This document shows, in pieces, positions 1 through 12,489 of a DNA stretch of 64,000 nucleotides. The DNA is taken from IMG/VR virus record IMGVR_UViG_3300030118_004474, positions 24,182 to 88,181 of that record; one strand, written 5' to 3'. The position numbers and the translations under genes were made by a program. The stretch comes from a virus. The notes beneath the pieces were generated by a model, which saw only the letters and a program-made list of their open reading frames with translations, did not search any database and was not told the DNA's origin. How positions within the stretch are numbered: position 1 is the first letter of the stretch; each line of letters starts with the position of its first letter.

Positions 1-279
1 TTTTGCCATCTTTGGTTGAATATTTCTTATAGTTTGTTCAATAGTCTTATTAGTTCCTGACTCCAACTCCTTTTTTAGTTTTTTAGCCGCTTTTTGATAG
101 CGTTTTTGGGCTGGTTCTTTCCACGCATAAAATGTAGAATAAGGACTAGCCATAAATAGTCCGTGGTCTTCATCTAAAAACTCCCAAATAATTGCCTCAA
201 TTAATCGTGTGCGGCACTCGTCCGCAGTTTTGGGTTCCTCATCGCTATCGTAGGTGGTGTCTAAATATGCTGTCGTCAT
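1..279 (-). CDS. Hypothetical protein, truncated by the window edge (MTTAYLDTTYDSDEEPK...)
   Basis: Read manually: ATG at 279 overlaps the upstream stop (ATGA coupling) and the frame stays open to base 1. Confidence 0.6.
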   Translation of the reverse strand, partial: MTTAYLDTTYDSDEEPKTADECRTRLIEAIIWEFLDEDHGLFMASPYSTFYAWKEPAQKRYQKAAKKLKKELESGTNKTIEQTIRNIQPKMAK

Positions 280-530
280 GCAGACTTCTCCTTATACCTC
301 GGATGATTCTTAGGCAAGCGATGTAGGCGGCGTTCACTCATATTTTGCATATACTGAGCAACACTAGCAACACTACTAGCCCAACGCTTTTCCGCCACTT
401 CATCATTTTCGGGAACCATTTGATACTTTAAGTCAACTAAGGCATTGGCGATTAAATCGCTATCTAACAACACTTGAAGAATTTCATACTCACCGTGAGT
501 GACTGTTCTAATCCTCGTCATCACAACCAC
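276..530 (-). CDS. Hypothetical protein
   Basis: ORF in a tightly packed minus-strand operon. Confidence 0.55.
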   Translation of the reverse strand: MVVMTRIRTVTHGEYEILQVLLDSDLIANALVDLKYQMVPENDEVAEKRWASSVASVAQYMQNMSERRLHRLPKNHPRYKEKSA

Positions 531-675
531 AATCCCCGTTTAAATCATCCATAGCCATAATATATCCTGCTAAGGTAAAACATGCCTTTTCAAGTTCAAA
601 ACTAAATGTTTTGTTGAACTTCTTTGCCTCCTCAGTTAGACGAATGAATTCATCGTAAATTTTTTCTAAATTCAT
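508..675 (-). CDS. Small hypothetical protein, 55 aa (MNLEKIYDEF...)
   Basis: Read manually; fills the gap between neighbours, ATGA overlap, GAGGTGA RBS upstream. Confidence 0.5.
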   Translation of the reverse strand: MNLEKIYDEFIRLTEEAKKFNKTFSFELEKACFTLAGYIMAMDDLNGDCGCDDED

Positions 676-896
676 TCTTTCACCTCGTCCTGCATTTTCA
701 AATATCCCAAGCGAACATCAGCGAGACTAATCCTAGTTGTCGGACCATTTCTTTCTCCTGAAGCAACACCAGTATAACGAACTAGTTGTTTGAGTATTTG
801 CTCACATCTAACTTGTAGTTCCTCAACTGCTTCCGCCTTGATTCCTCTTCCAGTTTCTTCTTTTACAATTCTTCTAATTTCTCTTACACTAACCAT
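672..896 (-). CDS. Putative archaeal histone-fold protein
   Basis: 74 aa; IRRIVKE...IKAEAVEEL...RISLADVRLG parallels HMf-type IGRIIK...VSDDA...RKTIKAEDIELA, with three-helix spacing. Confidence 0.55.
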   Translation of the reverse strand: MVSVREIRRIVKEETGRGIKAEAVEELQVRCEQILKQLVRYTGVASGERNGPTTRISLADVRLGYLKMQDEVKE

Positions 897-1309
897 TTTT
901 TAAACTCTCCTTTGTTATAAAAAGTTTGGATGCCTGAACTGGTTAAGTTCCAAGCAACCCATAATTGTCCTGTGCCGTAGGATATTTCCATACAAGCCCA
1001 GTCCTTCTTTACAGTTCCTAAATTCTTTACATCTACCATATTTCCATATATCATTCTATACAACATACTAACATGATTAACGTTATCATGTAAATATTGT
1101 ATTACTAAATGTTCTTGAACATTTACCCATTCCTCTTCTGAGTAATATTCTCCCGTCCCCTTACAGATTTTACATTTATTCCCATCACAAATGGGACAAA
1201 CATACCTTCTATCATAGACGGGAAACCTTACTACCTTTTTTAATTCAGCGGGAATTTGTCTGTCTCTACGATTTTCGTCATCACTTCTCTTCCCTGTTTT
1301 TTCTCCCAT
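884..1309 (-). CDS. Zn-finger protein with DnaJ-like CxxCxG motifs
   Basis: CPICDGNKCKICKGTG; likely start MGEKTG at 1309 after a GAGGTTG RBS. Confidence 0.6.
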   Translation of the reverse strand: MGEKTGKRSDDENRRDRQIPAELKKVVRFPVYDRRYVCPICDGNKCKICKGTGEYYSEEEWVNVQEHLVIQYLHDNVNHVSMLYRMIYGNMVDVKNLGTVKKDWACMEISYGTGQLWVAWNLTSSGIQTFYNKGEFKKWLV

Positions 1310-1782
1310 ATCAACCTCTCCTCTCCACCTAGAACAATTGCTTGGTTTAGAATAGGTCGCCATGTTCTCAACGTTCTCCTATCGGTTCCCGACCAAAAGG
1401 CAACTCCAAACGGGTGGGTATGAATCCAAGACTTTAGGGGAAGTTTCATTCCTGAAACCATAACTCCTCCGTAGTCAACCAGTCCGGGCGAACCGGAATT
1501 CATAAACAGTCTATCATTAGCGTCAACAATAACGCTTACTTCTAAACCACCTAACACTTCTACCGAGGCCTCCCAAATTTTATCTAAGAATAAAGGGCTT
1601 CCTGCGTCAGGCATTCCACTAAAAAGCAGATGCCGCCAAGCATCATGTATAGGTTTCTGCCAAACATCGGCAGGAACATCAGTCCATCGTTCATTCAAAT
1701 TACCTACGGGTTCCTTGATATTATTTCCAAGGAAAAACCCGTGGTAGTCGTTCTCAATTTTTTCTTCCATTTTTTCATTCAT
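1240..1782 (-). CDS. JAB/MPN+ (JAMM) metalloprotease, Ubl-processing or deconjugating
   Basis: Complete JAMM motif: E (GLEVSV) ... WIHTHPFGVAFWSGTD (HxH-x7-S-x2-D). Confidence 0.85.
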   Translation of the reverse strand: MNEKMEEKIENDYHGFFLGNNIKEPVGNLNERWTDVPADVWQKPIHDAWRHLLFSGMPDAGSPLFLDKIWEASVEVLGGLEVSVIVDANDRLFMNSGSPGLVDYGGVMVSGMKLPLKSWIHTHPFGVAFWSGTDRRTLRTWRPILNQAIVLGGEERLIWEKKQGREVMTKIVETDKFPLN

Positions 1783-1970
1783 TCTATCACTTCCATTTCT
1801 AATAGTCTTTTTGTTAAGTATTGACAATGTTCCGGCAAGGCGTGAACCTGTCCACTTACTCCATATCCGGCAACATAAATAGCGGGTTCTCCCTCAATTA
1901 TAGTCTGAAAACATAATCGGCAATAAGTCCGACCTGTTCCCATTTTAACACCAAATGCAACCGCCATCAA
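1779..1970 (-). CDS. Small Zn-finger protein
   Basis: GRTYCRLCFQTI...H...HC pattern. Confidence 0.5.
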   Translation of the reverse strand: MMAVAFGVKMGTGRTYCRLCFQTIIEGEPAIYVAGYGVSGQVHALPEHCQYLTKRLLEMEVIE

Positions 1971-2123
1971 ACAGTCCTCCTGTTCATTCCTCTTCCCCCA
2001 AAATTTTTTCTTCTACTTCCTTTTGTGTTTTCAAATCATTTAGAAGAAACTTGATTTTTCCCTTCCAAGTCTTTCTTTCTTCTTCTGCCATTTCTTCAAT
2101 GTATTTCCCTTTCTTCATTTTTC

Positions 2124-2360
2124 TCACTCCAATGGATGGTCAATGTCTTTATCTCCAAGCACCCAACGAAGAGCCTTAACCACGCCCTCCAATGCTTTGT
2201 AGTTCCTCATGTGGTACATCCGTTTCTTCTTCGGCCCGTCCAACATGGACATGTAGTGTGAGTTCTGTTTGCGCTCGGCCTTATCCAGCATGGTTTCAAT
2301 ATCATGCCAAGTTTTATCATAAGCGAAGTGTTCGCTGTCTTGGTGGTCGCTCATTGTCAT
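2124..2360 (-). CDS. Hypothetical protein
   Basis: GAGGAAG RBS; helical ORF in the operon. Confidence 0.6.
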   Translation of the reverse strand: MTMSDHQDSEHFAYDKTWHDIETMLDKAERKQNSHYMSMLDGPKKKRMYHMRNYKALEGVVKALRWVLGDKDIDHPLE

Positions 2361-2830
2361 TCTTCTTCCTCCTTTAAAATGGATGGGTATTCATCGGTAT
2401 ATATCAACCTATCAGCAATCCATTGTATGATTTGTTTCCTGTTCATGCGCTCCACCCATTTACAATCTCGGCGTGTTCTTCGCAACAAGCAAAACCTTCG
2501 GGGATTTCAATACCGTGAGTCATGCAGGATGGTTCACCACACACATCACAGGTGATATAGTAGGGAGACTCAAGTTCAATTTTACAGGTCTTACACTTCA
2601 TTCTTCTTCCCCCGAATAATCTTTTAATACCCTATGTATAATCTCGGACATAAGCCCTATAAACACAATCATAACCGTTAGTGTAATTACAGGGTTCATT
2701 CTTCTTCACCTAATCCTCTGAATCGTCGCCATAGTGCATATAGATACCTCCCTGCAACTGCTAGCACTAATAAGTCTAAAAGGATTCCTACTGTAATAAA
2801 TATCATCATTTCTGTTTCCATGTCTTCACC

Positions 2831-3382
2831 TCAAATACTCAACTGAATATGTTTCTTGACATCTTCACCAGCAAACCAACGCTGAATCCATTGTGCTCCC
2901 ATACCAGCAATAGCAACGTGGGTAAAGTGAATATCCCCTGCGGAACCATCCCAACTATCACCTTGGCAACTAAACGAACCATCAGGTCCAACATTCAACA
3001 TAGAAAGAATGTTTGGGTCTTCTTCGTAAGAAACCAATAACCCGTTTCTTCCCTGTGCTCTTAGGTCAAGCCAAGACATGCCCGTTTTGTAAAGCATCTG
3101 TCGCACAGCCAAATTATCTGCACAACAAACCACTAGGTCGTAGTTTGAAATTTGATTCTGCGTTAGCACCTTGTAAGGTTGTGGGATAACATAGGGCCAA
3201 CCTGCAAAGCAAGAAACCTTGTGTTTATCCAGCATACTGTCAGTAAAATTTTGATAGGTCAAATTCTTTTGTTCTACGGTGTCCGGGTCAAAGACCGTTA
3301 ACTCATAGATACCAGTTCTAGCCAAACAAGGAATCAAATGTGAACCTATTCCTCCTGCTCCAATTATCAATACTTTTCTCAT
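2831..3382 (-). CDS. ThiF/MoeB/E1-family ubiquitin-like activating enzyme
   Basis: VLIIGAGGIGS Rossmann loop, FDPDTVEQKNLTYQ, K, DLVVCCADNLAVR; candidate catalytic Cys in GSFSCQ. Confidence 0.9.
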   Translation of the reverse strand: MRKVLIIGAGGIGSHLIPCLARTGIYELTVFDPDTVEQKNLTYQNFTDSMLDKHKVSCFAGWPYVIPQPYKVLTQNQISNYDLVVCCADNLAVRQMLYKTGMSWLDLRAQGRNGLLVSYEEDPNILSMLNVGPDGSFSCQGDSWDGSAGDIHFTHVAIAGMGAQWIQRWFAGEDVKKHIQLSI

Positions 3383-4023
3383 ATTATTTCCTCCAATTTT
3401 TTATTATATTTTAGCACGGTTTGTCTGCTAATATAGAAAGCCCGTGCAACTTTCCTTAGCGATAAATTCGTCGTCCTATAAACACAAGCAGACAATATAT
3501 TCATGTTTATGTCAATTTTTTTAGATAACGCCCCTACAAAACTACCTATTGTTTTACATTCTTCTTCATCTAAATTAAGCGGTAGATTTCTTAGTAAGGC
3601 TTCCCATTCAGGCGGCCTATAAATTTCTGTTTCTTTTAGTCTCCCAAGTAGCGTCTTTACTGTTTTAGGGCGGACGCCCATATATGCACAATAATGTTTT
3701 AGTCTAGATACTTGGTTAGTATTACCCATGTATATGTGTAGGGATAAAACCGCTAGTGTATTTGAAGTATATCTGCTACTTCTGTATAGATTGATATAAC
3801 TACTTCGGTATATTCTTTTTACCGCCTCTATGTCTTCTACTCCGTATTCTCTACAAAGTATAACCAAGTCAACCATTTCTCTATCTACGGGTTTCTCACT
3901 TAAGGAAACCGAATATATTCTTGGAACCACGAACGAACCACACTCACGACATTTTATTGCCTGAGAGCCAGTCAATAACATTTTTTGTGGACGGTTTGAA
4001 GTTCTGCAAACTAAGCACTCCAT
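3379..4023 (-). CDS. Transcription factor B (TFB/TFIIB)-like protein
   Basis: N-terminal Zn ribbon (CLVC...CRECG), two cyclin-like helical repeats, C-terminal HTH (SACVY...SLRKVARAFYISRQTVLKYNKKL). The start may be 4068. Confidence 0.65.
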   Translation of the reverse strand: MECLVCRTSNRPQKMLLTGSQAIKCRECGSFVVPRIYSVSLSEKPVDREMVDLVILCREYGVEDIEAVKRIYRSSYINLYRSSRYTSNTLAVLSLHIYMGNTNQVSRLKHYCAYMGVRPKTVKTLLGRLKETEIYRPPEWEALLRNLPLNLDEEECKTIGSFVGALSKKIDINMNILSACVYRTTNLSLRKVARAFYISRQTVLKYNKKLEEII

Positions 4024-5308
4024 CTTTGAAATCCTCCTCAAATCTTTTTTTACCAAAGTATTTATCATAACCTCTTAGGGTAGAAACACTATCAATGTTC
4101 TTTTTATCATTTATTAGAACCATCACCCTAGAGGCTATTTGGTCGCCAACACTAACCCGTGATTCGGTTTGGTCAATACAGATACTACCTAGACTACGAT
4201 ATAGGTTTTTACCGTCCGAATAAATTTGTGATGAAAAGTAATCTTCGGTATTATTGATTTGAATTCTATAAGTCTTAGACAACAACTTTTGCCAACTTTC
4301 AAACGATTCCTTATCCCCATGTTTTGCGAATACCTTTAACGCTGTTAGCATCTTTTCGTCATCTTTAGGAATGATGTGTTCTAAGCATATAGTCTGAACA
4401 TCTTGTCTTCCAGTCACAACATGTTTTCCTTTTTCATGTCTAGTTATCACCATCCAACATGCTCCCGGTCCACGAACATAAAGACCGTGAGAAGCACCGG
4501 GACGACCAGTATTGACTGTTAATTCGTGAACGTTAGGAAACGACTTGTGAAGTTTTTCTACAAGTTCCATGCTTCTTTTCGTCACTAAATTAGTAGACTT
4601 ATTTTGAATCATAAATGCTTCAATTATCTTTTCTTGAGAATCAGTTAAAAATTTACCCGTTGATTGATGATATAGGTTCTGAAAAGGTATTGCCGTGTAT
4701 TTGTTGTGAGAACCCTGACATGCTCTTATGAACATAACTGCTTGTTTAAAGGGCATTTCAAACCATATATCGGTATAGAGTTGAATCGCTACTGAATCTG
4801 GCCCAGTTCTCTCTAAATCCAACAGAGTCTCTACTCGCTCCTTTTTTGATGTAAAAAAGGTATATTTAATTTTATTAACCATCGCAGAAGTAATTTCCGT
4901 AGGGGTTTCCATAAAATTACACACATCGTCATCAATTTCTTCGCTATCTTTATACTTGGGCATCTTGTAAATGATAATTTGTAGTAGTCTTACCAAGTTT
5001 TTTAGAGAAATCTTATCCCCGTTAATAAAATATGAACGGCCCTTTTTTGCTATCCTAACATTTTTTGTTGATTCTAAATCACCCATAACACAAAAAGCAA
5101 GTTCACCGTGTAGGAATCCCTTGATTGTTCTAGTGAAACTTTTGTCGTCTAATGCTGAGGTATCAAAATTATTTCGTCTATATCTATATCTATATCCCCT
5201 ACTAGGGTTTGGGTTAACCCAACCATTTTTATTAGTAAATACTATTGGGTTTCCTACTCTTTGGCCTCTTCTTCCCCTAAAATGTATTGTAGTTTTTATT
5301 GGTGTCAT
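3944..5308 (-). CDS. Hypothetical protein (454 aa) with C-terminal conserved-Cys domain (ICID...GDQIASR...ND)
   Basis: Long ORF in the operon with TFB and E1; motif shared with several late proteins. Confidence 0.75.
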   Translation of the reverse strand: MTPIKTTIHFRGRRGQRVGNPIVFTNKNGWVNPNPSRGYRYRYRRNNFDTSALDDKSFTRTIKGFLHGELAFCVMGDLESTKNVRIAKKGRSYFINGDKISLKNLVRLLQIIIYKMPKYKDSEEIDDDVCNFMETPTEITSAMVNKIKYTFFTSKKERVETLLDLERTGPDSVAIQLYTDIWFEMPFKQAVMFIRACQGSHNKYTAIPFQNLYHQSTGKFLTDSQEKIIEAFMIQNKSTNLVTKRSMELVEKLHKSFPNVHELTVNTGRPGASHGLYVRGPGACWMVITRHEKGKHVVTGRQDVQTICLEHIIPKDDEKMLTALKVFAKHGDKESFESWQKLLSKTYRIQINNTEDYFSSQIYSDGKNLYRSLGSICIDQTESRVSVGDQIASRVMVLINDKKNIDSVSTLRGYDKYFGKKRFEEDFKDGVLSLQNFKPSTKNVIDWLSGNKMS

Positions 5309-5550
5309 TCATCCACCTCCGAGTAGTAGATTTGTTCAGAAAGGTAACCATCGCAAATCTGAGTAAGTTTCTCTTGAATCTGTTTAGCAATAGCAGGTAT
5401 AGTATTCCTGTGTAGGGCCAACCAAATTCTCTCTGTTTCATTCATTATGATTGTAATGCCGGTGCTACCCTTTTTAGTAATCACCATTGGTGGCATATCA
5501 TTATCACGAACTATTTTATATTCAATAGTTTTTTCTGTCATTTCTTTCAC
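5305..5550 (-). CDS. Hypothetical protein
   Basis: Operonic ORF with overlapping stop/start. Confidence 0.6.
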   Translation of the reverse strand: MKEMTEKTIEYKIVRDNDMPPMVITKKGSTGITIIMNETERIWLALHRNTIPAIAKQIQEKLTQICDGYLSEQIYYSEVDE

Positions 5551-5737
5551 CTAGTTTTTTCATATATTCTAGCGGGCTTTCCTTGAGGGTCTGCCTACTC
5601 ACCGTTACGTGAGGAAATTGCTCAAACAAATGCGGCAATACCTCAAATAGTTTATCTTCTATTTCATAATTTTTAGTCCACACAGAGCCATTGGCTTTAA
5701 AGACCGTCACTCTATATAAGATGTTTTCATTTTCCAT
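5522..5737 (-). CDS. Hypothetical protein
   Basis: Operonic ORF, GGAGG RBS. Confidence 0.55.
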   Translation of the reverse strand: MENENILYRVTVFKANGSVWTKNYEIEDKLFEVLPHLFEQFPHVTVSRQTLKESPLEYMKKLGERNDRKNY

Positions 5738-5961
5738 AATATCATTCCTCCTTTTTCTATTTTTTCATATTTTTTTTCTGTTTTAATTAAGCATCGGATT
5801 TGCATGGTGGTAGGAACGTTTGTTCTTTTACCTCCTCTATCCGAGCGATATTGTTCAAATTTTTCTCTGATGTTTTCTGCTGTTCGCTCCTTGCCATCAG
5901 CCATAATTCTGTCAATCACCCAAAAGACCTGCTTTCGGTGTCTTTTTCTTCTAGTGGTCAT
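5707..5961 (-). CDS. Small winged-helix-like DNA-binding protein
   Basis: IDRIMADGKERTAENIRE...VPTTMQIRCLI...W pattern; similar to 54074..54334. Confidence 0.6.
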   Translation of the reverse strand: MTTRRKRHRKQVFWVIDRIMADGKERTAENIREKFEQYRSDRGGKRTNVPTTMQIRCLIKTEKKYEKIEKGGMILWKMKTSYIE

Positions 5962-7835
5962 AGTTCACAAGCCCCACCAGCACAAGCCAATTCTCCTGTT
6001 AAGTCGGTATTGTCCTCACTCTCAAAGACTTGAGACAAATCAATATCCGATAGACATTGCTTCAATTCATTGTAGTGTTCCTCGTCAATTGTTTCAAATG
6101 GAGCCTGTTTGTAGGTTCCTCCATCGTAGGGCAGAACAGATAAACCGTTGTAAGCATGTCGGTTATCCCACATCCATTGGCCCACTTCTTCCCACTCTTC
6201 TTCTTTCAAAGAAACCGTGGCAGAAACATTGTGTGTGTTAATTCCATCATTGTGTCCTTCCTTAACCCAAGTCTTGCTAACCAAGGCAATACGATTTAAC
6301 ATTGACAAAGCAGACTCTCCACGAATAGTTGCTCCTTCGGGTGCGGCTTGAGGCACGGAAAGAATGGCTGTATCGTGTGGTCGGAAATAACAATCCTCAA
6401 CCAATTCAGGCAAGTTATTCAGCAGGTAAGGATAAATTGCTTCGTCCTTTCCAACCCGTAGGCGGCGAATGTAATACTTATCGTGCCACGAATGAATACC
6501 ACTAGAAGTTCCCAGCACTAGGGAAGTAGTCCCAGCAGGTTTCACACAGGTTAACCTAGCCGCCTTATTTATTTTGAAATTACCAGCCCAATAAGCATTA
6601 ACTTTACGCACAATATCTGCGGCCTTTCTCAAGTTAATATCCGACAGAATTTTGTGTCCTTTTTCATCAGTAGGATTGCTTGCTATTCCAGTCATACTAA
6701 CCCCCAGTAAAGCATCCCTTTCGGTATTGCGTTTCCAAACCTCTCTTAGATAGTGAAAATCTGTATAGGTGGCCTGCAAGGTAGCAAGGAAAGTAGCCAA
6801 AGAGACACGCTCAAAAAAGTCTGCCGTATCAACTAGATTACTAGCATTAATCTCTACCAAATTACAGAACTGATACGGACGAAGTGCAATTTCACAGCAT
6901 GGATTTGTCCCCCAGTCTTTGTCGTTGCTAAAGTAAATGCCCGGTTCGCCGCTTCCACTAGCCTTAATACGTTCCCACAACGCATTGAAGAATTGTTGGT
7001 CTGCTCGGCTACGAATCAAAACTGCTGAGTTATTTGCTCGTCCTCTTTCGGGATGAGTTTCCCACCAATTACCCGACTTACAGGAAATCATGTCGTTGTC
7101 ATCTGCACTAAAAAGACTAATCAAAGCCGCACGACGAATTCCACCAGCCAAAACCGCATCAGCAATAATACACATAATATCGTGAACTTGGATAGGTTTT
7201 AGTTGAGTATTTGTTTCGTGTTCTTTGAGGATATTTTCAACCTTTACTAAACATTCTCGTAGGGGAGCAGGACCCGGAGCCTTTCCACCGGAGGTGATTA
7301 GCGGGGTTCCTTTCTTACGAATATCTGAATAGTCAAAAATGGGTGTGCTTTTTGTTACACCAAAATAACTCTTCATCAGAACCTTAACTGCGTCAGCCCA
7401 ACCTTCTATTGAATCGCCAATAAGATACCTGCGAGTTCGGTTAGGGTTTGGGTGCTGAACTTCCGGAAGCATTTCAATATGGTGTCGCTGAACTGAATAT
7501 CCAACACCAGTTCCACCCAACAAAAGAAACATTGATTCACTAAATGCGTCAATGTGCTCAATTGGTAGATAAGCGCAGTTGTAGATTCGGTTAGGACTAG
7601 TTTCAATTGGCTTTCCGGCAAATTGCATTGACCTCATAGATGGTAAGATTTTCTTACTCCTTACCATTTCGTAGACATCTCTAATAGTCTCCTCCCATTT
7701 AGGGAACTTTTTGATGTGCATTTGCATGTTTCGCTCGCACAATTCTTCCCATGTTTCTCTTCTCATTTCGTCTATTTTATACTTAGCATACTTCATATGC
7801 ACAGTAATGTTGCTTAAAATCTCTTTTTCATTCAT
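5958..7835 (-). CDS. nrdJ: Class II (adenosylcobalamin-dependent) ribonucleotide reductase
   Basis: ILPSMR, NCAY, GGIRRAA, GEPG, TNPCCEI (catalytic NPCxE), CVKPAGTTS, C-terminal ACAGGACEL redox pair. Confidence 0.95.
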   Translation of the reverse strand: MNEKEILSNITVHMKYAKYKIDEMRRETWEELCERNMQMHIKKFPKWEETIRDVYEMVRSKKILPSMRSMQFAGKPIETSPNRIYNCAYLPIEHIDAFSESMFLLLGGTGVGYSVQRHHIEMLPEVQHPNPNRTRRYLIGDSIEGWADAVKVLMKSYFGVTKSTPIFDYSDIRKKGTPLITSGGKAPGPAPLRECLVKVENILKEHETNTQLKPIQVHDIMCIIADAVLAGGIRRAALISLFSADDNDMISCKSGNWWETHPERGRANNSAVLIRSRADQQFFNALWERIKASGSGEPGIYFSNDKDWGTNPCCEIALRPYQFCNLVEINASNLVDTADFFERVSLATFLATLQATYTDFHYLREVWKRNTERDALLGVSMTGIASNPTDEKGHKILSDINLRKAADIVRKVNAYWAGNFKINKAARLTCVKPAGTTSLVLGTSSGIHSWHDKYYIRRLRVGKDEAIYPYLLNNLPELVEDCYFRPHDTAILSVPQAAPEGATIRGESALSMLNRIALVSKTWVKEGHNDGINTHNVSATVSLKEEEWEEVGQWMWDNRHAYNGLSVLPYDGGTYKQAPFETIDEEHYNELKQCLSDIDLSQVFESEDNTDLTGELACAGGACEL

Positions 7836-7886
7836 TCATTTTCCCCTCCTTGGGTAGTTGGAAGTAGTAAATAGATTGTTTATAAA

Positions 7887-8192
7887 TCATTCTACTAGCC
7901 TCCAAGTTGTTTCTTTTTTGTTCTTTCCGTCTTCGGTAAAATACCTTTCTTCTATTTTTTCAAAACTTTCGTGGTAGCCCAGAACATTTGCTAACGCTCC
8001 GGATGTAATACCATACCGAGTGTTGGAGTTTAACCAGTCTCTAATCTGAAGAAAAGATGCCTCGTTATCTTCACAACTCTTTAGATATTTTTTAATCCAC
8101 CTTATGTTATTGAAATGTTTATTATTTCCGACCCTTGGGGGTCCTCTGTTTTCAAATTTTATACTTTGATTATGTGTTCCCATATTTATCAC
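7887..8192 (-). CDS. Winged-helix-like DNA-binding protein
   Basis: ASFLQIRDWLN...GITSGALANVL...FEK...WRL. Confidence 0.55.
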   Translation of the reverse strand: MINMGTHNQSIKFENRGPPRVGNNKHFNNIRWIKKYLKSCEDNEASFLQIRDWLNSNTRYGITSGALANVLGYHESFEKIEERYFTEDGKNKKETTWRLVE

Positions 8193-8213
8193 TTCTTTTT
8201 ATTATTGAGTAGG

Positions 8214-8297
8214 TGCTGGGGGCAGGATTTGAACCTGCGAACCTTTGAGGACAGGAGTTTAAGCCCTGCGCTTTTAACCATACTCAGCCACCCCAGC
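8214..8297 (-). tRNA. tRNA-Leu (anticodon TAA)
   Basis: Reverse complement GCTGGGG...CAGGG-CTTAAAC-TCCTG, long variable arm, GGTTCAAATCC T-loop, CCCCAGC-A acceptor. Confidence 0.92.
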
Positions 8298-8303
8298 GTT
8301 TAA

Positions 8304-8375
8304 CGGGCGTAGGAGGAATTGAACCCCCATCTCCGGCTTAGAAGGCCGGAATGCTATCCTTTACACCATACGCCC
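8304..8375 (-). tRNA. tRNA-Arg (anticodon TCT)
   Basis: Reverse complement GGGCGTA...CCGGC-CTTCTAA-GCCGG...GGTTCAATTCC...TACGCCC-G. Confidence 0.93.
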
Positions 8376-8382
8376 TTAGAAT

Positions 8383-8670
8383 TTAATGTCCCTTACAATT
8401 GGGACAACAATCATTGTCATCTACTATTTTTTGTGGCGGTTTGCCTACAAATAGTCTCCAACATCCAAAGTCCATTCGTTGAAAGTTTTTACAACCTCCT
8501 CCGTTTTCGCATTGGTATCTAAAAAATGGAGCATCAGGCTTGCTACATGCACACAATTGGCGTTCGCACGAAGCCCAAGGTTCCATTAATATTAATTCTT
8601 CTTCATTACTAAATCTTCTTTTCATTATTCTTCCTCCAACATATCTATCCATTCGTCTTTTATTTTCCAT
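8383..8670 (-). CDS. Cys-rich hypothetical protein
   Basis: Multiple Cys clusters including CPNCKG. Confidence 0.5.
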   Translation of the reverse strand: MENKRRMDRYVGGRIMKRRFSNEEELILMEPWASCERQLCACSKPDAPFFRYQCENGGGCKNFQRMDFGCWRLFVGKPPQKIVDDNDCCPNCKGH

Positions 8671-8825
8671 TTTACATAACTTACTTTATCTATTTTTATT
8701 CTATCTAAGTGGGCGTCAACCTCTATGTTTCCACACCCACAAATTGTGAAATATTTATACTTGTTTTTTACAAGCACATTTTTTTCGCATATTTTACAAT
8801 GCAATAATACGTCAATTTTAGGCAT
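8625..8825 (-). CDS. Small Zn-ribbon protein
   Basis: CKIC...CGCGNIEVD; probable start MPKID at 8825. Confidence 0.55.
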   Translation of the reverse strand: MPKIDVLLHCKICEKNVLVKNKYKYFTICGCGNIEVDAHLDRIKIDKVSYVKWKIKDEWIDMLEEE

Positions 8826-9171
8826 TTTCCCACTCTTCCCAAGTTTGAGACGAATTATCAATCTCCGCCGTATCTGAAAGCCCTGCTTCATCGTCTTGAT
8901 ATTTTTCGTCGGGTTTCATACTTATCCAACCTCTATCTAGGGCCATTGTTATCAACTTTTCCGGTATTTCTTTACCATTATTGCTGAGAAAATCACACAA
9001 CACTAACCATTCTTCTGCCGATGCAGAGTATATTTCGTCGTGTAAATAAAACCCTTCAATTATACCATCTACTTTGATGGTCTTTTTTATTTTCTTTTGG
9101 TTATAGTAGTCCCTACGGTATTCTAATATTGCTCTGGGTGTTTCAATTAACATCTTTAGTAGCCACAGCAT
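8818..9171 (-). CDS. Hypothetical protein
   Basis: Operonic ORF. Confidence 0.55.
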   Translation of the reverse strand: MLWLLKMLIETPRAILEYRRDYYNQKKIKKTIKVDGIIEGFYLHDEIYSASAEEWLVLCDFLSNNGKEIPEKLITMALDRGWISMKPDEKYQDDEAGLSDTAEIDNSSQTWEEWENA

Positions 9172-9538
9172 TTTTAGAAGCCTCCGCCTTTAATTTATTA
9201 TAGTTCTTTAAATTTTGATTATATTTGAATTCAAAATAATTTACTGTTCCGTTCAAGTGACTTCTAATTGTTGCTAAGTCTCTTTTACCTAGAGTATTAA
9301 ACAGTTGTTTATCTAATTTATGATAACCGCTTTTGTTATGAAGCGACCAAATATAGGTAATAACAGTACCTTTAGGTCTGTTCTTTCTATTTGGTTCCCT
9401 GTAAGTTAGATATATTTCTTCTTCTAACATATATTCCGAAATTTGTTTTTTTGTCCATCTCATAATATCACCTTTTGGGGTTTTTACAGAACCCCTTAAC
9501 TGGCACTTCTTTTTCTTCTTAGTGCGAGAATAGAACAA
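9143..9538 (-). CDS. Hypothetical protein (true start probably MRWTKK near 9463)
   Basis: AGGTGA RBS precedes the internal Met. Confidence 0.55.
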   Translation of the reverse strand: MFYSRTKKKKKCQLRGSVKTPKGDIMRWTKKQISEYMLEEEIYLTYREPNRKNRPKGTVITYIWSLHNKSGYHKLDKQLFNTLGKRDLATIRSHLNGTVNYFEFKYNQNLKNYNKLKAEASKNAVATKDVN

Positions 9539-9553
9539 CGAACTGATTAGTCC

Positions 9554-9760
9554 TCAGTTCTGGCCTCCCACAATCGCTTGTGTCAGGATAACAGTTTCAA
9601 TGCTTTCTAGTGGAATATTAGCCACATCAGCATGAGCAACCATTTCGCCATTGATGTAAGCCCAATGGGTTGGGTGATTGTAAATCTGTTCTACTGCTTC
9701 TTCTGCGGACAAAACCAATTCGGTGTGTCCTGTGTCATTCAAAATCGTTACGTCTACCAT
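9554..9760 (-). CDS. Ubiquitin-like (beta-grasp, ThiS/MoaD/SAMP-type) protein with a GG-QN C-terminus
   Basis: 68 aa; VDVTIL...AYINGEMV...VILTQAIVGG followed by QN-stop; GAGGAGG RBS. Confidence 0.75.
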   Translation of the reverse strand: MVDVTILNDTGHTELVLSAEEAVEQIYNHPTHWAYINGEMVAHADVANIPLESIETVILTQAIVGGQN

Positions 9761-9762
9761 TT

Positions 9763-10041
9763 TTATTCCTCCTCATTTATTTCGTTGTTCTTAATTTGTG
9801 CCAAACATGCCTTTCGGAGTTTGGACTTTCCTCGCTGGATTTGTCCCTCGGTAAAAATACCCAAGGTCAACAAATCGTCTAGCATACGGCTCTTTTCGGA
9901 AACCATATATTCAAGTTCTTCTTTCTGTTCTGGGGTGAGATATTTCCCACCAGTCATTTTATCCATGAACTTTCTGACTTCTAGTTCAGTCATCAGTCCA
10001 CTTCGCATCATGCTATTCATCTGTTCCAACAATTCATTCAT
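9763..10041 (-). CDS. Hypothetical protein
   Basis: Operonic ORF, GGAGGTGA RBS. Confidence 0.6.
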   Translation of the reverse strand: MNELLEQMNSMMRSGLMTELEVRKFMDKMTGGKYLTPEQKEELEYMVSEKSRMLDDLLTLGIFTEGQIQRGKSKLRKACLAQIKNNEINEEE

Positions 10042-10261
10042 GTTTTTTCACCTCCCACACGGCAACGGAATAACTTCCATTTTGTCCTGTGAGTATTACT
10101 GTATTAACCTTTCTAAAATGCTGTGAAGCATGTAGTTTGGTTCCTACTGATTTTATGCTACCTATGTAGTATTTGTCTTTCAAATTGTATTGTATTTCAT
10201 GGGTTGATGACGGTCCCTTTTTTTCAAGAAATCTAGTCACAGCCTTTTCAAATCTATTCAT
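10034..10261 (-). CDS. Small winged-helix-like protein
   Basis: FLEKKGPSSTHEI...SVGTKL...FRKV...VWEV. Confidence 0.55.
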   Translation of the reverse strand: MNRFEKAVTRFLEKKGPSSTHEIQYNLKDKYYIGSIKSVGTKLHASQHFRKVNTVILTGQNGSYSVAVWEVKKHE

Positions 10262-10566
10262 TTTTTCACCTCATTACAAAATTTAGACCTTTCCATGCCT
10301 CGTAGCACGAGTCGTGGTATTTTTGTTTGATTTCTTCTGGGTGCATTAGTGGTCCTCCGCATATTTCACATTTATGTTCCATTAAATCACCTCAAATATC
10401 ACCAAAAATTTCTCCACAAATCGGTTCAATTTTTACGACCCAAATTGAGTCTTCGTTCCAAGTTTCAGGGGCAACTACCTCTCTACTAACAATTACTACC
10501 CTTTGTTTCATTCTCCTGTCTTTTATTTTCACCTTCATTTCTTATCACCTATCTGGGTTTTACCCA

Positions 10567-10773
10567 TCATTCAGTCCTCCAAAAAATAATTTCAATAACA
10601 CTAGTTGTCTCCAATGCTGATGGTTGTATTATTTCAAGAGTGAACCAACTCATTGTTTCGGTTTTGACATATTTACCAGTAGGGTAATCTTTGCCTAATC
10701 TAGTGTATTCCTTCTCATTAACATATACGTTATGTGTTGTTTTCCCATGCTTCATAGATATTCCTCCAACCAT
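10567..10773 (-). CDS. Hypothetical protein
   Basis: Operonic ORF. Confidence 0.45.
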   Translation of the reverse strand: MVGGISMKHGKTTHNVYVNEKEYTRLGKDYPTGKYVKTETMSWFTLEIIQPSALETTSVIEIIFWRTE

Positions 10774-11240
10774 TGAGGGGCGGTCCCTTTTGTGTATTTA
10801 GCAAAACGAGCCTTTTCATTTATGTAATAATTCCGATATGCTTCTATTGGGTCTTTACATTTATACTCGTCAGGCATACATTGAGGTGGAGGGTAAAACT
10901 CCCCACCTTTAACGGGACTTTCTTTCAATAGTTCTAGTAATTCACTAGAAGCATGGACTTTATTATACCTTCGGCTATACTCGTTTAACATAGCAACCAA
11001 AAGGTCGTAGTGCCATAAGTAGTTCCCTTCTGTTTGCATAGTCCAAACAGTTGAAGGATGACCAACATGCACGGGTTTGTAAATATTCTTTAAAACATTC
11101 TTTGACTCTTTAAATGAGGTTTTTGACCACCAAGCAGTAGACAGCATTTGTGCTGATTCCAAGGGCATTTTTACAATGTGCTTATCACACAGTTGTTTTG
11201 CTATTTCTGTTGGGTCTTTTGATAGATAAAATATATTCAT
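10752..11240 (-). CDS. Pyrimidine-dimer DNA glycosylase / T4 endonuclease V-like protein
   Basis: MNIFYL...CDKHIVKMPLESAQMLST...YKPVHVGHPSTVW...NYLW...EY..RYNKVH...PPQCMPDEYK...AYRNYY family pattern. Confidence 0.8.
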   Translation of the reverse strand: MNIFYLSKDPTEIAKQLCDKHIVKMPLESAQMLSTAWWSKTSFKESKNVLKNIYKPVHVGHPSTVWTMQTEGNYLWHYDLLVAMLNEYSRRYNKVHASSELLELLKESPVKGGEFYPPPQCMPDEYKCKDPIEAYRNYYINEKARFAKYTKGTAPQWLEEYL

Positions 11241-11255
11241 TCTTCCACATTCCAT

Positions 11256-11790
11256 TTATTGTTTTTCTATTTTATAGAACATTTCTCACTACATAATGAG
11301 AGAGAATCCATATCTCCTACATTTTGTCAGCGAGAATGCCCGTTTCTCGTCATTTCTCATTTCTCATGAGTCTCATGGGGGTGTGCATCTACACACACCA
11401 CCACCACCACCACCAACTTACAATAATATATGATAATAATGAGAATATAAGAAATATAATAGATAATTGAAATATCCTAAACATTTTGTCATACTTAGTG
11501 TCTCACGAACTTTCTCATGTGAGAACATACGACAATTTGTAGGATTTATATAAAAACAAAAGAATATAACGCTCAAGAAAACATAAAGTGAATTTTAGAT
11601 TTGGTGAAATGTCAAGAATAGGAGATAACTTGGACACCAATGTTTTCAAGAGCATTACTGGTCATGGGTCTGAGTATATAAGGTGGTTCAGACCCCTTAT
11701 AAAGGACCGGAACGGTTATATACCCCTATATAGGTCTATATAGATTACATATATTTTTATACCAACTAAAGATTCTTTCCCTCTTTTCCT
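11256..11790. other. Non-coding strand-switch region, candidate replication origin or divergent promoter region
   Basis: No ORF; many TCTCA/TGAGA motifs, (CAC)n tract near 11396-11414, AT-rich stretch, several TTATA boxes; lies between the divergent gene blocks. Confidence 0.45.
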
Positions 11791-11874
11791 ACCATATGGT
11801 AGCAACGTAATTTGTATTTGCACCCCATATACTAACCCTCCGTCATGTATTGCCTAAAAAGGCAGGAGATAACA

Positions 11875-12489
11875 ATGGCAAAAGAACAAGAAATGATAAC
11901 TGACGAAAAATGGACTGCGTGGACAAACGCAATCATTGAATGGGGAGAGAACTTTGATTCTCACCTTCAAACATTGGTTGATGCCCCCGAAGGTCAATTT
12001 GAAATTGATGATGAAGAAATGGAAGCGAACTGGGCAACCATTCAAAACAAAATCAACCGTGGAAACAAGCGACCGGCCCGAAGGAACGACTTGAAAAAGC
12101 AAATTCAAGAAGAAGGACGAAAAATGCCCAACTGGCCCCATTCTCGTGGAGCCGGTTCATCTTTGACCCCAGAACAACAAGCGGCAAGAGACAAGTTCGC
12201 CGCAATTGCTCGTTTGGCGGCAATTGCTGAATATCAAGTCTTTGTTGAAAACGACGCAACCCACCTTTTGGTTCAGCGAGCATCCAAAGCGAATCAAACA
12301 GAAGGTGAAGAGTTCCCTTCGCAGGAAGCGTTTGTTGAATACCGGGAGAAAGCGGCCAAGGCAACTGCAACCGGCTACCTTTCAGGAAAAACGGCATTTT
12401 GGGGTGCAAAGGATGAAGAAGACAATGTTCTTCCCTTTGACTTCCAACAGAAGATTGTACGACCCATCCCTGTTGATAAGGAGGAGTAA
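11875..12489 (+). CDS. Hypothetical protein (cassette 1)
   Basis: GGAGA RBS before MAKEQ; visibly more GC-rich than flanking genes. Confidence 0.8.
   Translation: MAKEQEMITDEKWTAWTNAIIEWGENFDSHLQTLVDAPEGQFEIDDEEMEANWATIQNKINRGNKRPARRNDLKKQIQEEGRKMPNWPHSRGAGSSLTPEQQAARDKFAAIARLAAIAEYQVFVENDATHLLVQRASKANQTEGEEFPSQEAFVEYREKAAKATATGYLSGKTAFWGAKDEEDNVLPFDFQQKIVRPIPVDKEE

Follow-up and report, generated by a model that had tools for sequence, protein, structure and literature searches.

The window analysed here is a 64,000-nucleotide stretch of DNA that corresponds to bases 24182-88181 of one 88,181-bp virus record (IMGVR_UViG_3300030118_004474). Its minus strand carries the genes of a ubiquitin-like protein (Ubl), of an E1-like adenylating enzyme of the ThiF type (E1) and of a JAMM/MPN+ metalloprotease of the JAB type, which an initial annotation had proposed to be a virus-encoded conjugation set. 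The three open reading frames (ORFs) were found on the minus strand where that annotation had located them (Table 1), in a block of replication genes that runs on the strand opposite to the structural genes, and the Ubl gene lies 6.2 kb away from the E1 gene. The virus is a magrovirus-like archaeal tailed virus of marine origin, an assignment that was made by gene content and not by a tree, because the gene content fits the magroviruses of marine group II (MGII) archaea as they are described in PMC5434244. That paper places the hosts of magroviruses among the most abundant archaeal groups of the surface ocean.

Table 1. Positions of the features discussed in the text; numbering is that of the window unless another coordinate system is named.
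Feature	Position	Strand	Basis or remark
Candidate accessory protein, 130-159 aa	884..1363	-	Zinc knuckle C-P-I-C-x-G-x-x-C-x-x-C invariant
JAMM/MPN+ metalloprotease, 180 aa	1240..1782 (longest ORF to 1827, from TTG)	-	Motif, fold
JAMM motif HTHPFGVAFWSGTD	1381-1422	-	
JAMM upstream Glu81	1540-1542	-	
Minimal ThiF-type E1-like adenylating enzyme, 183 aa	2831..3382	-	Pfam ThiF, alignments
E1 Cys139 in FSCQG	2966-2968	-	
E1 D89-N90	3113-3118	-	
E1 GAGGIG	3344-3361	-	
229-aa protein	3379-4068	-	N-terminal zinc ribbon, C-terminal helix-turn-helix
454-aa ORF	3944-5308	-	
81-aa ORF	5305-5550	-	
tRNA genes Leu(UAA) and Arg(UCU)	8212-8375	-	
Pro-Ubl, 68 aa, ends IVGG-QN	9554..9760	-	ORF, homologues, fold model
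Ubl QN tail	9557-9562	-	
Ubl GG	9563-9568	-	
ATP-dependent DNA ligase, 705 aa	38939-41056	+	Pfam 2.2e-30
Cpn60/TCP1-type chaperonin	genome 20187-21758 (L002 5188-6759)	-	Pfam 1.5e-37
Ubl-Ubl-E1 fusion gene	L164 4342-5589		

The ubiquitin-like protein

The Ubl features three invariant motifs, N-x-T-G-H-T-E, H-P-T-H-W and a C-terminal Q-A-I-V-G-G. A k-mer search identified 69 relatives, and a HMMER profile search, run in full on 1.84 billion representatives, identified 133 of them. The existence of these relatives, the VGG of the viral copies and the invariant motif residues of the JAMM (see below) exclude a chance occurrence. The protein has no match in Pfam, PHROG, PADLOC or NCBIfam, and a sequence search of the PDB gave chance-level rows only. 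The model built from an alignment of 32 relatives has a predicted local distance difference test score (pLDDT) of 85 and a b-b-a-b-b-a-b topology. The best rows of a Foldseek search with this model were all ubiquitin, NEDD8 or ISG15, with weak E-values (6e-3 upward), and an exhaustive VIA-align comparison revealed PB1, MoaD, Fubi, ISG15, TtuB, ThiS, CysO and BubA among the beta-grasp matches. The Z-scores of the latter comparison do not exceed 4.8 and therefore support the fold class and not a subfamily. Judged by its modelled fold, the 68-aa protein belongs to the ubiquitin-like beta-grasp superfamily, as had been supposed initially. A pattern scan of 185,579 species genomes for the Ubl gave a single match of 17 residues, on a contig of a cyanobacterial metagenome-assembled genome, that was regarded as noise. 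The Ubl represents a previously unclassified beta-grasp family with the signature TGHT...HPTHW...VGG.

The C-terminus combines a constant diglycine with a tail that varies. G65 and G66 are invariant in all 32 aligned relatives, in which QAIVGG is followed by 1 to 22 residues. The VGG is also present in each of the 81 viral copies (those of the 80 loci described below and that of this genome), with a tail that is missing from 10 copies and that counts a single residue in 18 copies, two residues in 48 and four to nine in 5; the commonest tails are CY (13 copies), C (8), SC (6) and Y (6). The end of the profile model is reached by 104 of the 133 representatives; in 103 of these the domain closes with GG (94) or AG (9), and the tails behind this GG or AG consist of 0 residues in 23 representatives, 1-7 in 55, 11-50 in 11 and more than 50 in 14. 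The conservation of the GG among homologues thus agrees with what the initial annotation had anticipated. A constant GG with a variable tail is the pattern of a precursor with a C-terminal cap that would be cut off, and the GG would serve for activation. The Ubl of the window contains 10 acidic residues, no Lys and no Arg, and therefore would leave no short remnant after trypsin.

The E1-like enzyme

The E1 is recognised by Pfam ThiF (PF00899) with an E-value of 2.2e-17 (63.5 bits; cut-off 28.1) and aligns with MoeB (1jw9) with an E-value of 8.8e-7 in an alignment that starts at MoeB residue 33. A total of 779 homologues were found. The protein features the hallmarks of the ThiF/E1 superfamily, which are a Rossmann adenylation domain above the Pfam cut-off, the GxGGxG motif and the Asp of the xDN motif. 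This Asp binds Mg in MoeB and ThiF. Alignment with 36 homologues showed that G8, G10, G11, G13, D89 and N90 are invariant in all of them, and that GxGGxG, D32, D34, K39-N40, Q44, K55, C87-D89-N90, R94, L-D-L-R-x-Q-x-R (105-112) and F-S-C-Q-G (137-141) are kept. Cys139, in the last of these motifs, is likewise invariant in 36 of 36 homologues and is located 50 residues past Asp89; it is a candidate for the catalytic or crossover-loop Cys, as its position would, by spacing, correspond to that of Cys184 in ThiF, Cys187 in MoeB and Cys188 in UbaA. The enzyme has no Cys4 zinc site, no rhodanese domain and no E2 domain. The CBASS E1-E2 models of PADLOC match with their E1 part only, over residues 2-99 (best 4.8e-11), and the PHROG matches of the ThiF protein are to unnamed families only.

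A MccB-like reaction, with adenylation by the E1 of the Asn at the end of GGQN, was weighed and rejected, as the tail is not conserved and is absent from 10 of the 81 copies. This candidate is also countered by the lack of an N-terminal peptide-clamp region in the E1 and by an alignment with MccB that is limited to E1 residues 3-56.

The JAMM protease

The JAMM/MPN+ assignment is based on the E..HxHx7SxxD zinc and catalytic motif and on the MPN fold. All 27 aligned homologues share E81, H121, H123, S131 and D134, and the N-terminal ~55 residues are variable or disordered. The top Foldseek match of the JAMM model is CsRpn11 (6fnn_A) with an E-value of 3.6e-3; the closest fold is that of the SAMP-specific PfJAMM1, followed by deubiquitinases. 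Neither PHROG nor PADLOC gave a match for this protein.

The modelled E1-Ubl complex

The complex was modelled with ESMFold2 from two copies of the E1 and residues 1-66 of the Ubl, in three runs and with three controls. The complex score was 0.68 (0.67-0.69 among runs) against 0.02 for the best control; the calibration mark was attained by 116 of 157 solved complexes and by 2 of 215 mismatched pairs. The runs agreed in at least 95% of contacts, and the pLDDT of the partner was at least 86. In the model, Ubl residues 60-66 contact E1 residues 8, 10-13 (P-loop), 87-91 (CADN), 107-115 and 135-139, the last of which include Cys139, and Gly66 contacts residues 12, 87, 107-110 and 155. The model thus puts the Ubl tail in the ATP site of the E1, and this predicted geometry is supported by the score. 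Additionally, Ubl residues 9-12 and 31-35, which hold the TGHT and PTHW motifs, are located within the modelled interface, a position that would account for the conservation of these motifs.

Linkage of the three genes

The gene neighbourhood was studied in IMG/VR by a scan for the Ubl (at least 108 contigs, of which 80 loci were kept) and a scan for the JAMM (324 contigs, 80 loci). In 72 of the 80 Ubl-anchored loci the Ubl gene is followed by ThiF 2.5-8.3 kb downstream and then by JAB, on a single strand and in a single order. Six of the other loci have the Ubl only and their sequence stops 765-3,864 nt past it, and two have Ubl and ThiF, with sequence that stops at ThiF or 1.2 kb past it; for three of these eight incomplete loci the absent genes are found on other loci of the same contig (L006/L096, L012/L120 and L021/L130). 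The JAB-anchored loci include 40 with all three genes, 25 with ThiF and JAB in which the Ubl region is outside the sequence, and 15 with JAB only. Each of these 15 has no more than 1,600 nt upstream, and ThiF is present in all 65 loci with more than 1,600 nt upstream. The ThiF and JAB genes abut or overlap in several loci, with a smallest gap of -105 nt and a median of 430 nt. A control that is independent of the triad was obtained by sampling anchored on the major capsid protein (MCP). This sampling recovered a complete 94-kb record not previously in the set, whose MCP is 46% identical and which carries all three genes, and four fragments, 33-51% complete, that carry none of the three. The predicted co-occurrence of the three genes across related viruses is borne out by these data.

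Relatives of the Ubl among the 133 representatives include proteins in which Ubl units are joined to each other or to an E1. Three proteins consist of three head-to-tail units and 10 of two units, with GG at the end of every unit, and some relatives feature Ubl units ahead of unrelated domains of 150-320 aa. In P0260 and P0293, one or two Ubl units directly precede a ThiF domain of the minimal type (Pfam ThiF 3.6e-17 and 8.6e-17). A scan of metagenome contigs with the fusions as queries recovered two loci, L164 and L165. In L164 the gene directly after Ubl-Ubl-E1, on the same strand, encodes a JAMM protein that belongs to the viral family (E 8.5e-24, with an intact HTHPHGHAYWSLTD), and L165 stops 143 bp beyond the fusion. 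The L164 locus (1-8612) also carries a T7-like RNA polymerase and a TFIIB-type zinc ribbon, and is flanked by a wyosine radical-SAM gene and PhoU/PHO4. This context is unlike that of the magroviruses, and the linkage therefore recurs outside the magrovirus synteny. Single-protein scans of viral contigs with the fusion P0260 and the triple-Ubl protein P0241 gave no match, and no viral relative of the three-member alignment A7 was found by scan. On this evidence the Ubl, the E1 and the JAMM form one functional unit, for which the linkage is strong, and the poly-Ubl and Ubl-Ubl-E1 forms give further support to the functional set beyond what had been noted initially.

The fusion gene adjoins the T7-like single-subunit RNA polymerase and the TFIIB-type zinc-ribbon protein in L165 (1-4623) as it does in L164. 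These two loci may represent a virus or mobile element, so far unrecognised, that resides in the genome of an archaeon.

Searches for E2 enzymes and sulfur partners

The 112 ORFs of the whole 88-kb genome were searched for Pfam families of thiamine, molybdopterin and tRNA thiolation pathways and of E2 enzymes, and none was found. Scanned in all six frames, the genome also gave no match to rhodanese, PP-loop ATPase, UQ_con or ThiS, and cysteine desulfurase, MoaE and ThiG families were found neither among the 112 ORFs nor in the six-frame scans. The genome holds no recognisable linked sulfur donor and sulfur-insertion enzyme, in keeping with the initial annotation, which had seen no such genes in the window; this result covers the viral genome, and partners encoded by the host fall outside its scope. 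The annotation had also seen no canonical E2, and UQ_con and Prok-E2 indeed have no Pfam match in the 112 ORFs, of which more than half have no assignable family, so that a divergent E2 is possible.

Proposed mechanism and alternative explanations

The mechanism that we infer starts with a 68-aa Ubl that would be made as a precursor, its essential Gly-Gly capped by a short variable tail (QN in this virus). The JAMM would cleave after Gly66 and, in relatives, would free the units from poly-Ubl and Ubl-Ubl-E1 precursors. A dimer of the E1 would bind the Ubl via the conserved surface formed by TGHT and HPTHW and thread the AIVGG tail into the ATP site, where Gly66 would be adenylated, after which the Ubl would probably be handed to the invariant Cys139. 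The activated Ubl would most likely be joined, with no E2, to lysines of viral or host proteins in a SAMPylation-like manner, and the JAMM could also reverse the mark; the final acceptor is the most conjectural element of this scheme. Transfer to lysine without an E2 is favoured because the host is archaeal and the nearest JAMM fold is PfJAMM1, and because the relatives are built as polyubiquitin and ubiquitin-fusion precursors and neither a sulfur donor nor an acceptor could be recognised in the genome. We consider the odds slightly in favour of a self-contained Ubl activation module that is conserved in magrovirus-like viruses and most likely used for E2-free protein tagging. The fuller version is a complete E2-free conjugation system of MGII magrovirus-like viruses, with a new Ubl in capped, poly-Ubl and fusion forms, a 183-aa E1 responsible for transfer as well as adenylation, and a JAMM that both matures and erases, for the tagging of host or viral proteins. 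This version is advanced tentatively, at somewhat short of an even chance.

Several observations weigh against protein tagging or against the steps that it calls for. Tyr43 of the E1 (Tyr in more than 90% of members, otherwise Phe) is located at the position of the Arg in the NLxRQ motif of MoeB, and the enzyme opens at the first Rossmann strand with no N-terminal segment ahead of the fold. The canonical NLxRQ Arg and the N-terminal Arg-finger segment are thus both missing. The NLxRQ Arg and the Arg-finger residues contact ATP. Compared with MoeB and ThiF, the viral E1 presumably has neither the helices at the N-terminus on which the arginine finger is located nor the four-cysteine zinc site. 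None of the NCBIfam equivalog cut-offs was reached, the scores being 55.1 against 275 for ThiF (TIGR02356), 37.7 against 377 for MoeB (TIGR02355), 38.7 against 450 for UbaA (NF047750) and 37.1 against 145 for PRTRC ThiF, with Cap2 also below its cut-off; catalysis by the E1 is therefore assumed. The match of the JAMM to Pfam Prok-JAB (PF14464) covers the motif region only and is below the gathering cut-off (14.8 bits against 25, E 0.026). Pfam ThiS (PF02597) gave no match at E-values up to 1 for the window Ubl or the rest of the 32 aligned members, and the Pfam Ub family gave none across these 32. Lacking Lys, the window Ubl is unable to make lysine-linked chains. The score of the modelled complex may mirror a likeness to the solved MoeB-MoaD and ThiF-ThiS complexes. 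Finally, no conjugate, target or E2/E3 is in evidence.

A rival explanation is a sulfur carrier, in which a Ubl of the ThiS/MoaD/TtuB kind would be unmasked by the JAMM, adenylated by the E1 and converted to a thiocarboxylate with a persulfide donor from the host, the product feeding a host or unrecognised viral insertion enzyme for tRNA or nucleotide thiolation or for cofactor synthesis. The layout of the three genes corresponds to that of bacterial carriers: according to PMC5925218, QbsE ends in GG-CF and is trimmed by the JAMM protein QbsD, and CxnE (GG plus a decapeptide) and CxnF act likewise. The tails found most often in the viral copies hold a Cys, an aromatic residue or both and are reminiscent of the CF of QbsE, the two-unit relative P0251 scores 22.4 bits with Pfam ThiS against a cut-off of 22.5, and two relatives are labelled 'sulfur carrier protein ThiS' by their source annotation. 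The structural matches of the Ubl include MoaD, TtuB, ThiS and CysO, the best sequence matches of the E1 are MoeB and ThiF, and the host could provide both the sulfur donor and the acceptor, which the virus, with no rhodanese, desulfurase, PP-loop thiolase, MoaE or ThiG in its ORFs and six-frame scans, does not appear to encode. The two tRNA genes of the virus also count in favour of sulfur carriage, but tRNA Leu-UAA and Arg-UCU presumably fall outside the 2-thiolated classes. Tandem poly-Ubl proteins and Ubl units fused to domains of 150-320 aa resemble ubiquitin precursors more, and the nearest JAMM fold is SAMP-specific, with deubiquitinases next. We regard a sulfur carrier as a fairly unlikely explanation that nevertheless keeps considerable weight. 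The initial annotation therefore stands in one part, that the masked-GG Ubl, the E1 and the JAB form a virus-encoded functional set, and not in the other, that the virus tags proteins for host takeover, proteasome targeting or counter-defence, which remains unproven because the same three-part architecture serves bacterial sulfur carriers (PMC5925218).

A role in counter-defence or mimicry, in which the JAMM would mainly strip Bil-, Bub-, CBASS- or SAMP-type marks of the host from viral proteins and the viral Ubl and E1 would act as decoys or competitors, is improbable. Bacterial Bil systems tag phage tail proteins, and the E1 resembles the E1 part of the PADLOC CBASS E1-E2 models, but neither the JAMM nor the Ubl has a PADLOC match, and the pattern scan of species genomes revealed, at its sensitivity, no host Ubl of this family to mimic. 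The invariant GG, the trimming of the tail, the Ubl-E1 fusions and the docking geometry point instead to a productive activation of the virus's own Ubl. It is also conceivable that the three genes have no functional link and co-travel within one family of viruses whose synteny is conserved. The block includes further genes of equal constancy (of 80 loci, 75 have the 454-aa ORF, 74 the 81-aa ORF and 57 the ribonucleotide reductase (RNR)), and most of the co-occurrence stems from a single virus lineage; synteny alone is therefore weak evidence, and the distance between the Ubl and E1 genes in the window points the same way. The argument for linkage is carried by the fusions and by the adjacency in L164, where Ubl-Ubl-E1 and JAMM genes adjoin in a divergent lineage and another gene context. 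Together with the abutting or overlapping ThiF and JAB genes and the modelled E1-Ubl interface, with its score far above the best control, they make an absence of any link highly improbable. A role in tail assembly similar to that of TAPI/TAPK of lambda was rejected, as the genes are found in the replication block opposite to the structural strand and an E1 is present.

Relation to known systems

The E2-free tagging that is preferred here resembles archaeal SAMPylation (SAMP1-3, UbaA, HvJAMM1/PfJAMM1). The viral E1 differs from UbaA in being ~90 aa shorter and in its score below the UbaA cut-off, and it has no N-terminal segment and a Tyr in place of the MoeB NLxRQ Arg; the viral Ubl belongs to no Pfam family, is C-terminally capped and is encoded by a virus. 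The JAMM-matured sulfur carriers QbsE/QbsD/QbsC (thioquinolobactin), CxnE/CxnF (chuangxinmycin) and CysO/Mec+ are found among biosynthetic enzymes and work with a MoeZ-type E1 with a rhodanese domain. In contrast, the viral genome has neither a rhodanese nor a biosynthetic gene, and relatives of the viral family make poly-Ubl and Ubl-protein fusions. Type II CBASS (Cap2/Cap3), Bil and Bub differ in that the searches revealed neither an E2 domain nor an E2 gene for the viral set, and in that the owner of the set is the virus and not the host. The C-terminus that CBASS activates is that of the cyclase and not that of a free Ubl.

The operon of Caldiarchaeum subterraneum is similar in that its JAMM protein, CsRpn11, is the top Foldseek match of the viral JAMM. 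According to PMC6043591, CsRpn11 both processes the ubiquitin precursor and deconjugates. The Caldiarchaeum operon has an E2, a RING E3 and a eukaryote-type ubiquitin, whereas no E2 or E3 was found in the virus genome. Prokaryotic clusters of Ubl, E1 and JAB were described by Iyer, Burroughs and Aravind in 2006 (PMC1779556), whose work includes an N-terminal Ub-like-ThiF fusion in Campylobacter, the triple Ub-like protein mlr6139 and the phage proteins TAPI/TAPK, which combine a JAB with a Ubl with a C-terminal Gly. The same three themes recur in relatives of the viral Ubl. TAPI/TAPK are located in a tail module without an E1, whereas the present set is in the replication block of an archaeal virus together with an E1, and the mobile-element clusters carry an E2-like gene. 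ThiF/E1-like proteins of tailed-virus-like archaeal genomes have been reported by Rambo et al. (bioRxiv 10.1101/2021.07.29.454249) for the Asgard virus Nidhogg. Their text reads the E1-like ThiF genes as ubiquitin-related and states that ubiquitin-system genes were previously undescribed in archaeal viruses. For Nidhogg E1 homologues only are reported, which were proposed to hijack ubiquitin, E2 and Ubl of the host, whereas the present virus has its own Ubl and JAMM and a minimal E1.

In none of three papers on magroviruses (PMC5434244, PMC11706807 and PMC10160649) does the main text mention ubiquitin, MoeB, adenylyltransferase, ThiF or JAB; their supplementary gene tables may list ThiF/MoeB. 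Full-text literature searches that combined magrovirus with ubiquitin and archaeal virus with ThiF gave nothing on this set. Triads of Ubl, E1 and JAMM are already known from prokaryotes, and what appears to be new, within the literature searched, is a virus-owned, lineage-wide triad with an unclassified Ubl family and an unusually small E1. If conjugation is the true function, no virus of prokaryotes would have been found before with a full apparatus for Ubl tagging, and the set would include the smallest E1 known to conjugate; ubiquitin-like tagging would then be an infection tool in a prokaryotic host, and the 183-aa minimal E1 would be of use for mechanism and engineering. Sulfur carriage would represent a novel sort of viral auxiliary metabolism. 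Under either reading, a Ubl family with poly-Ubl and Ubl-E1 forms widens the range of polyubiquitin-like precursors beyond eukaryotes.

Genome context and neighbouring genes

The opening 98 bases of the record are repeated at its end (genome 1-98 and 88083-88180), and this terminal recurrence suggests a circularly assembled, complete genome. The record is classed as linear by IMG/VR, with a CheckV completeness of 88%. A megablast search with window positions 1-12000 revealed no close phage relative in GenBank. The structural block occupies the plus strand from ~11.8 kb on and includes the large terminase, portal, prohead protease, MCP, tail tube and tape measure. The minus-strand block continues upstream of the window with a family B DNA polymerase, an RFC-like clamp loader and an ERCC4 nuclease, and also includes a PD-(D/E)XK nuclease, a Cpn60/TCP1 chaperonin and a class II RNR.

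The candidate accessory protein, 159 aa in this virus, features a zinc knuckle and a C-terminal alpha/beta domain of ~75 aa, and is encoded by an ORF that shares sequence with the 3' end of the JAMM gene. The gene is found on the same strand in 61 of the 80 Ubl-anchored loci; it abuts or overlaps JAB in several of these and is located 1-3 kb beyond it in others. Searches of Pfam, PDB and Atlas gave nothing informative, with zinc-ribbon-level rows in the PDB and unnamed viral clusters in Atlas at 0.87 (lead level 0.9). The protein may assist the Ubl set as an accessory factor.

The 454-aa and 81-aa ORFs share 4 nt at their ends and have no Pfam, PHROG, PDB-profile or Atlas match; Cys377, D389-Q390 and N400-D401 are invariant in the 454-aa family. 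The gene of the 229-aa protein overlaps the start of ThiF by 4 nt and is present in 19 of 80 loci. This protein has a weak match, under the cut-off, to an IS1 transposase of NCBIfam (2.7e-5).

The chaperonin gene is directly upstream of the RFC-like AAA+ clamp loader and represents a virus-encoded folding machine within the early block that also holds the Ubl set. The two tRNA genes lie among the replication genes, with the Ubl gene on one side and the RNR gene on the other, and both tRNAs decode A-ending codons; the GC content of the genome is ~36-40%. The DNA ligase gene is part of the structural module, where it is flanked by head-related genes and by the prohead protease gene.

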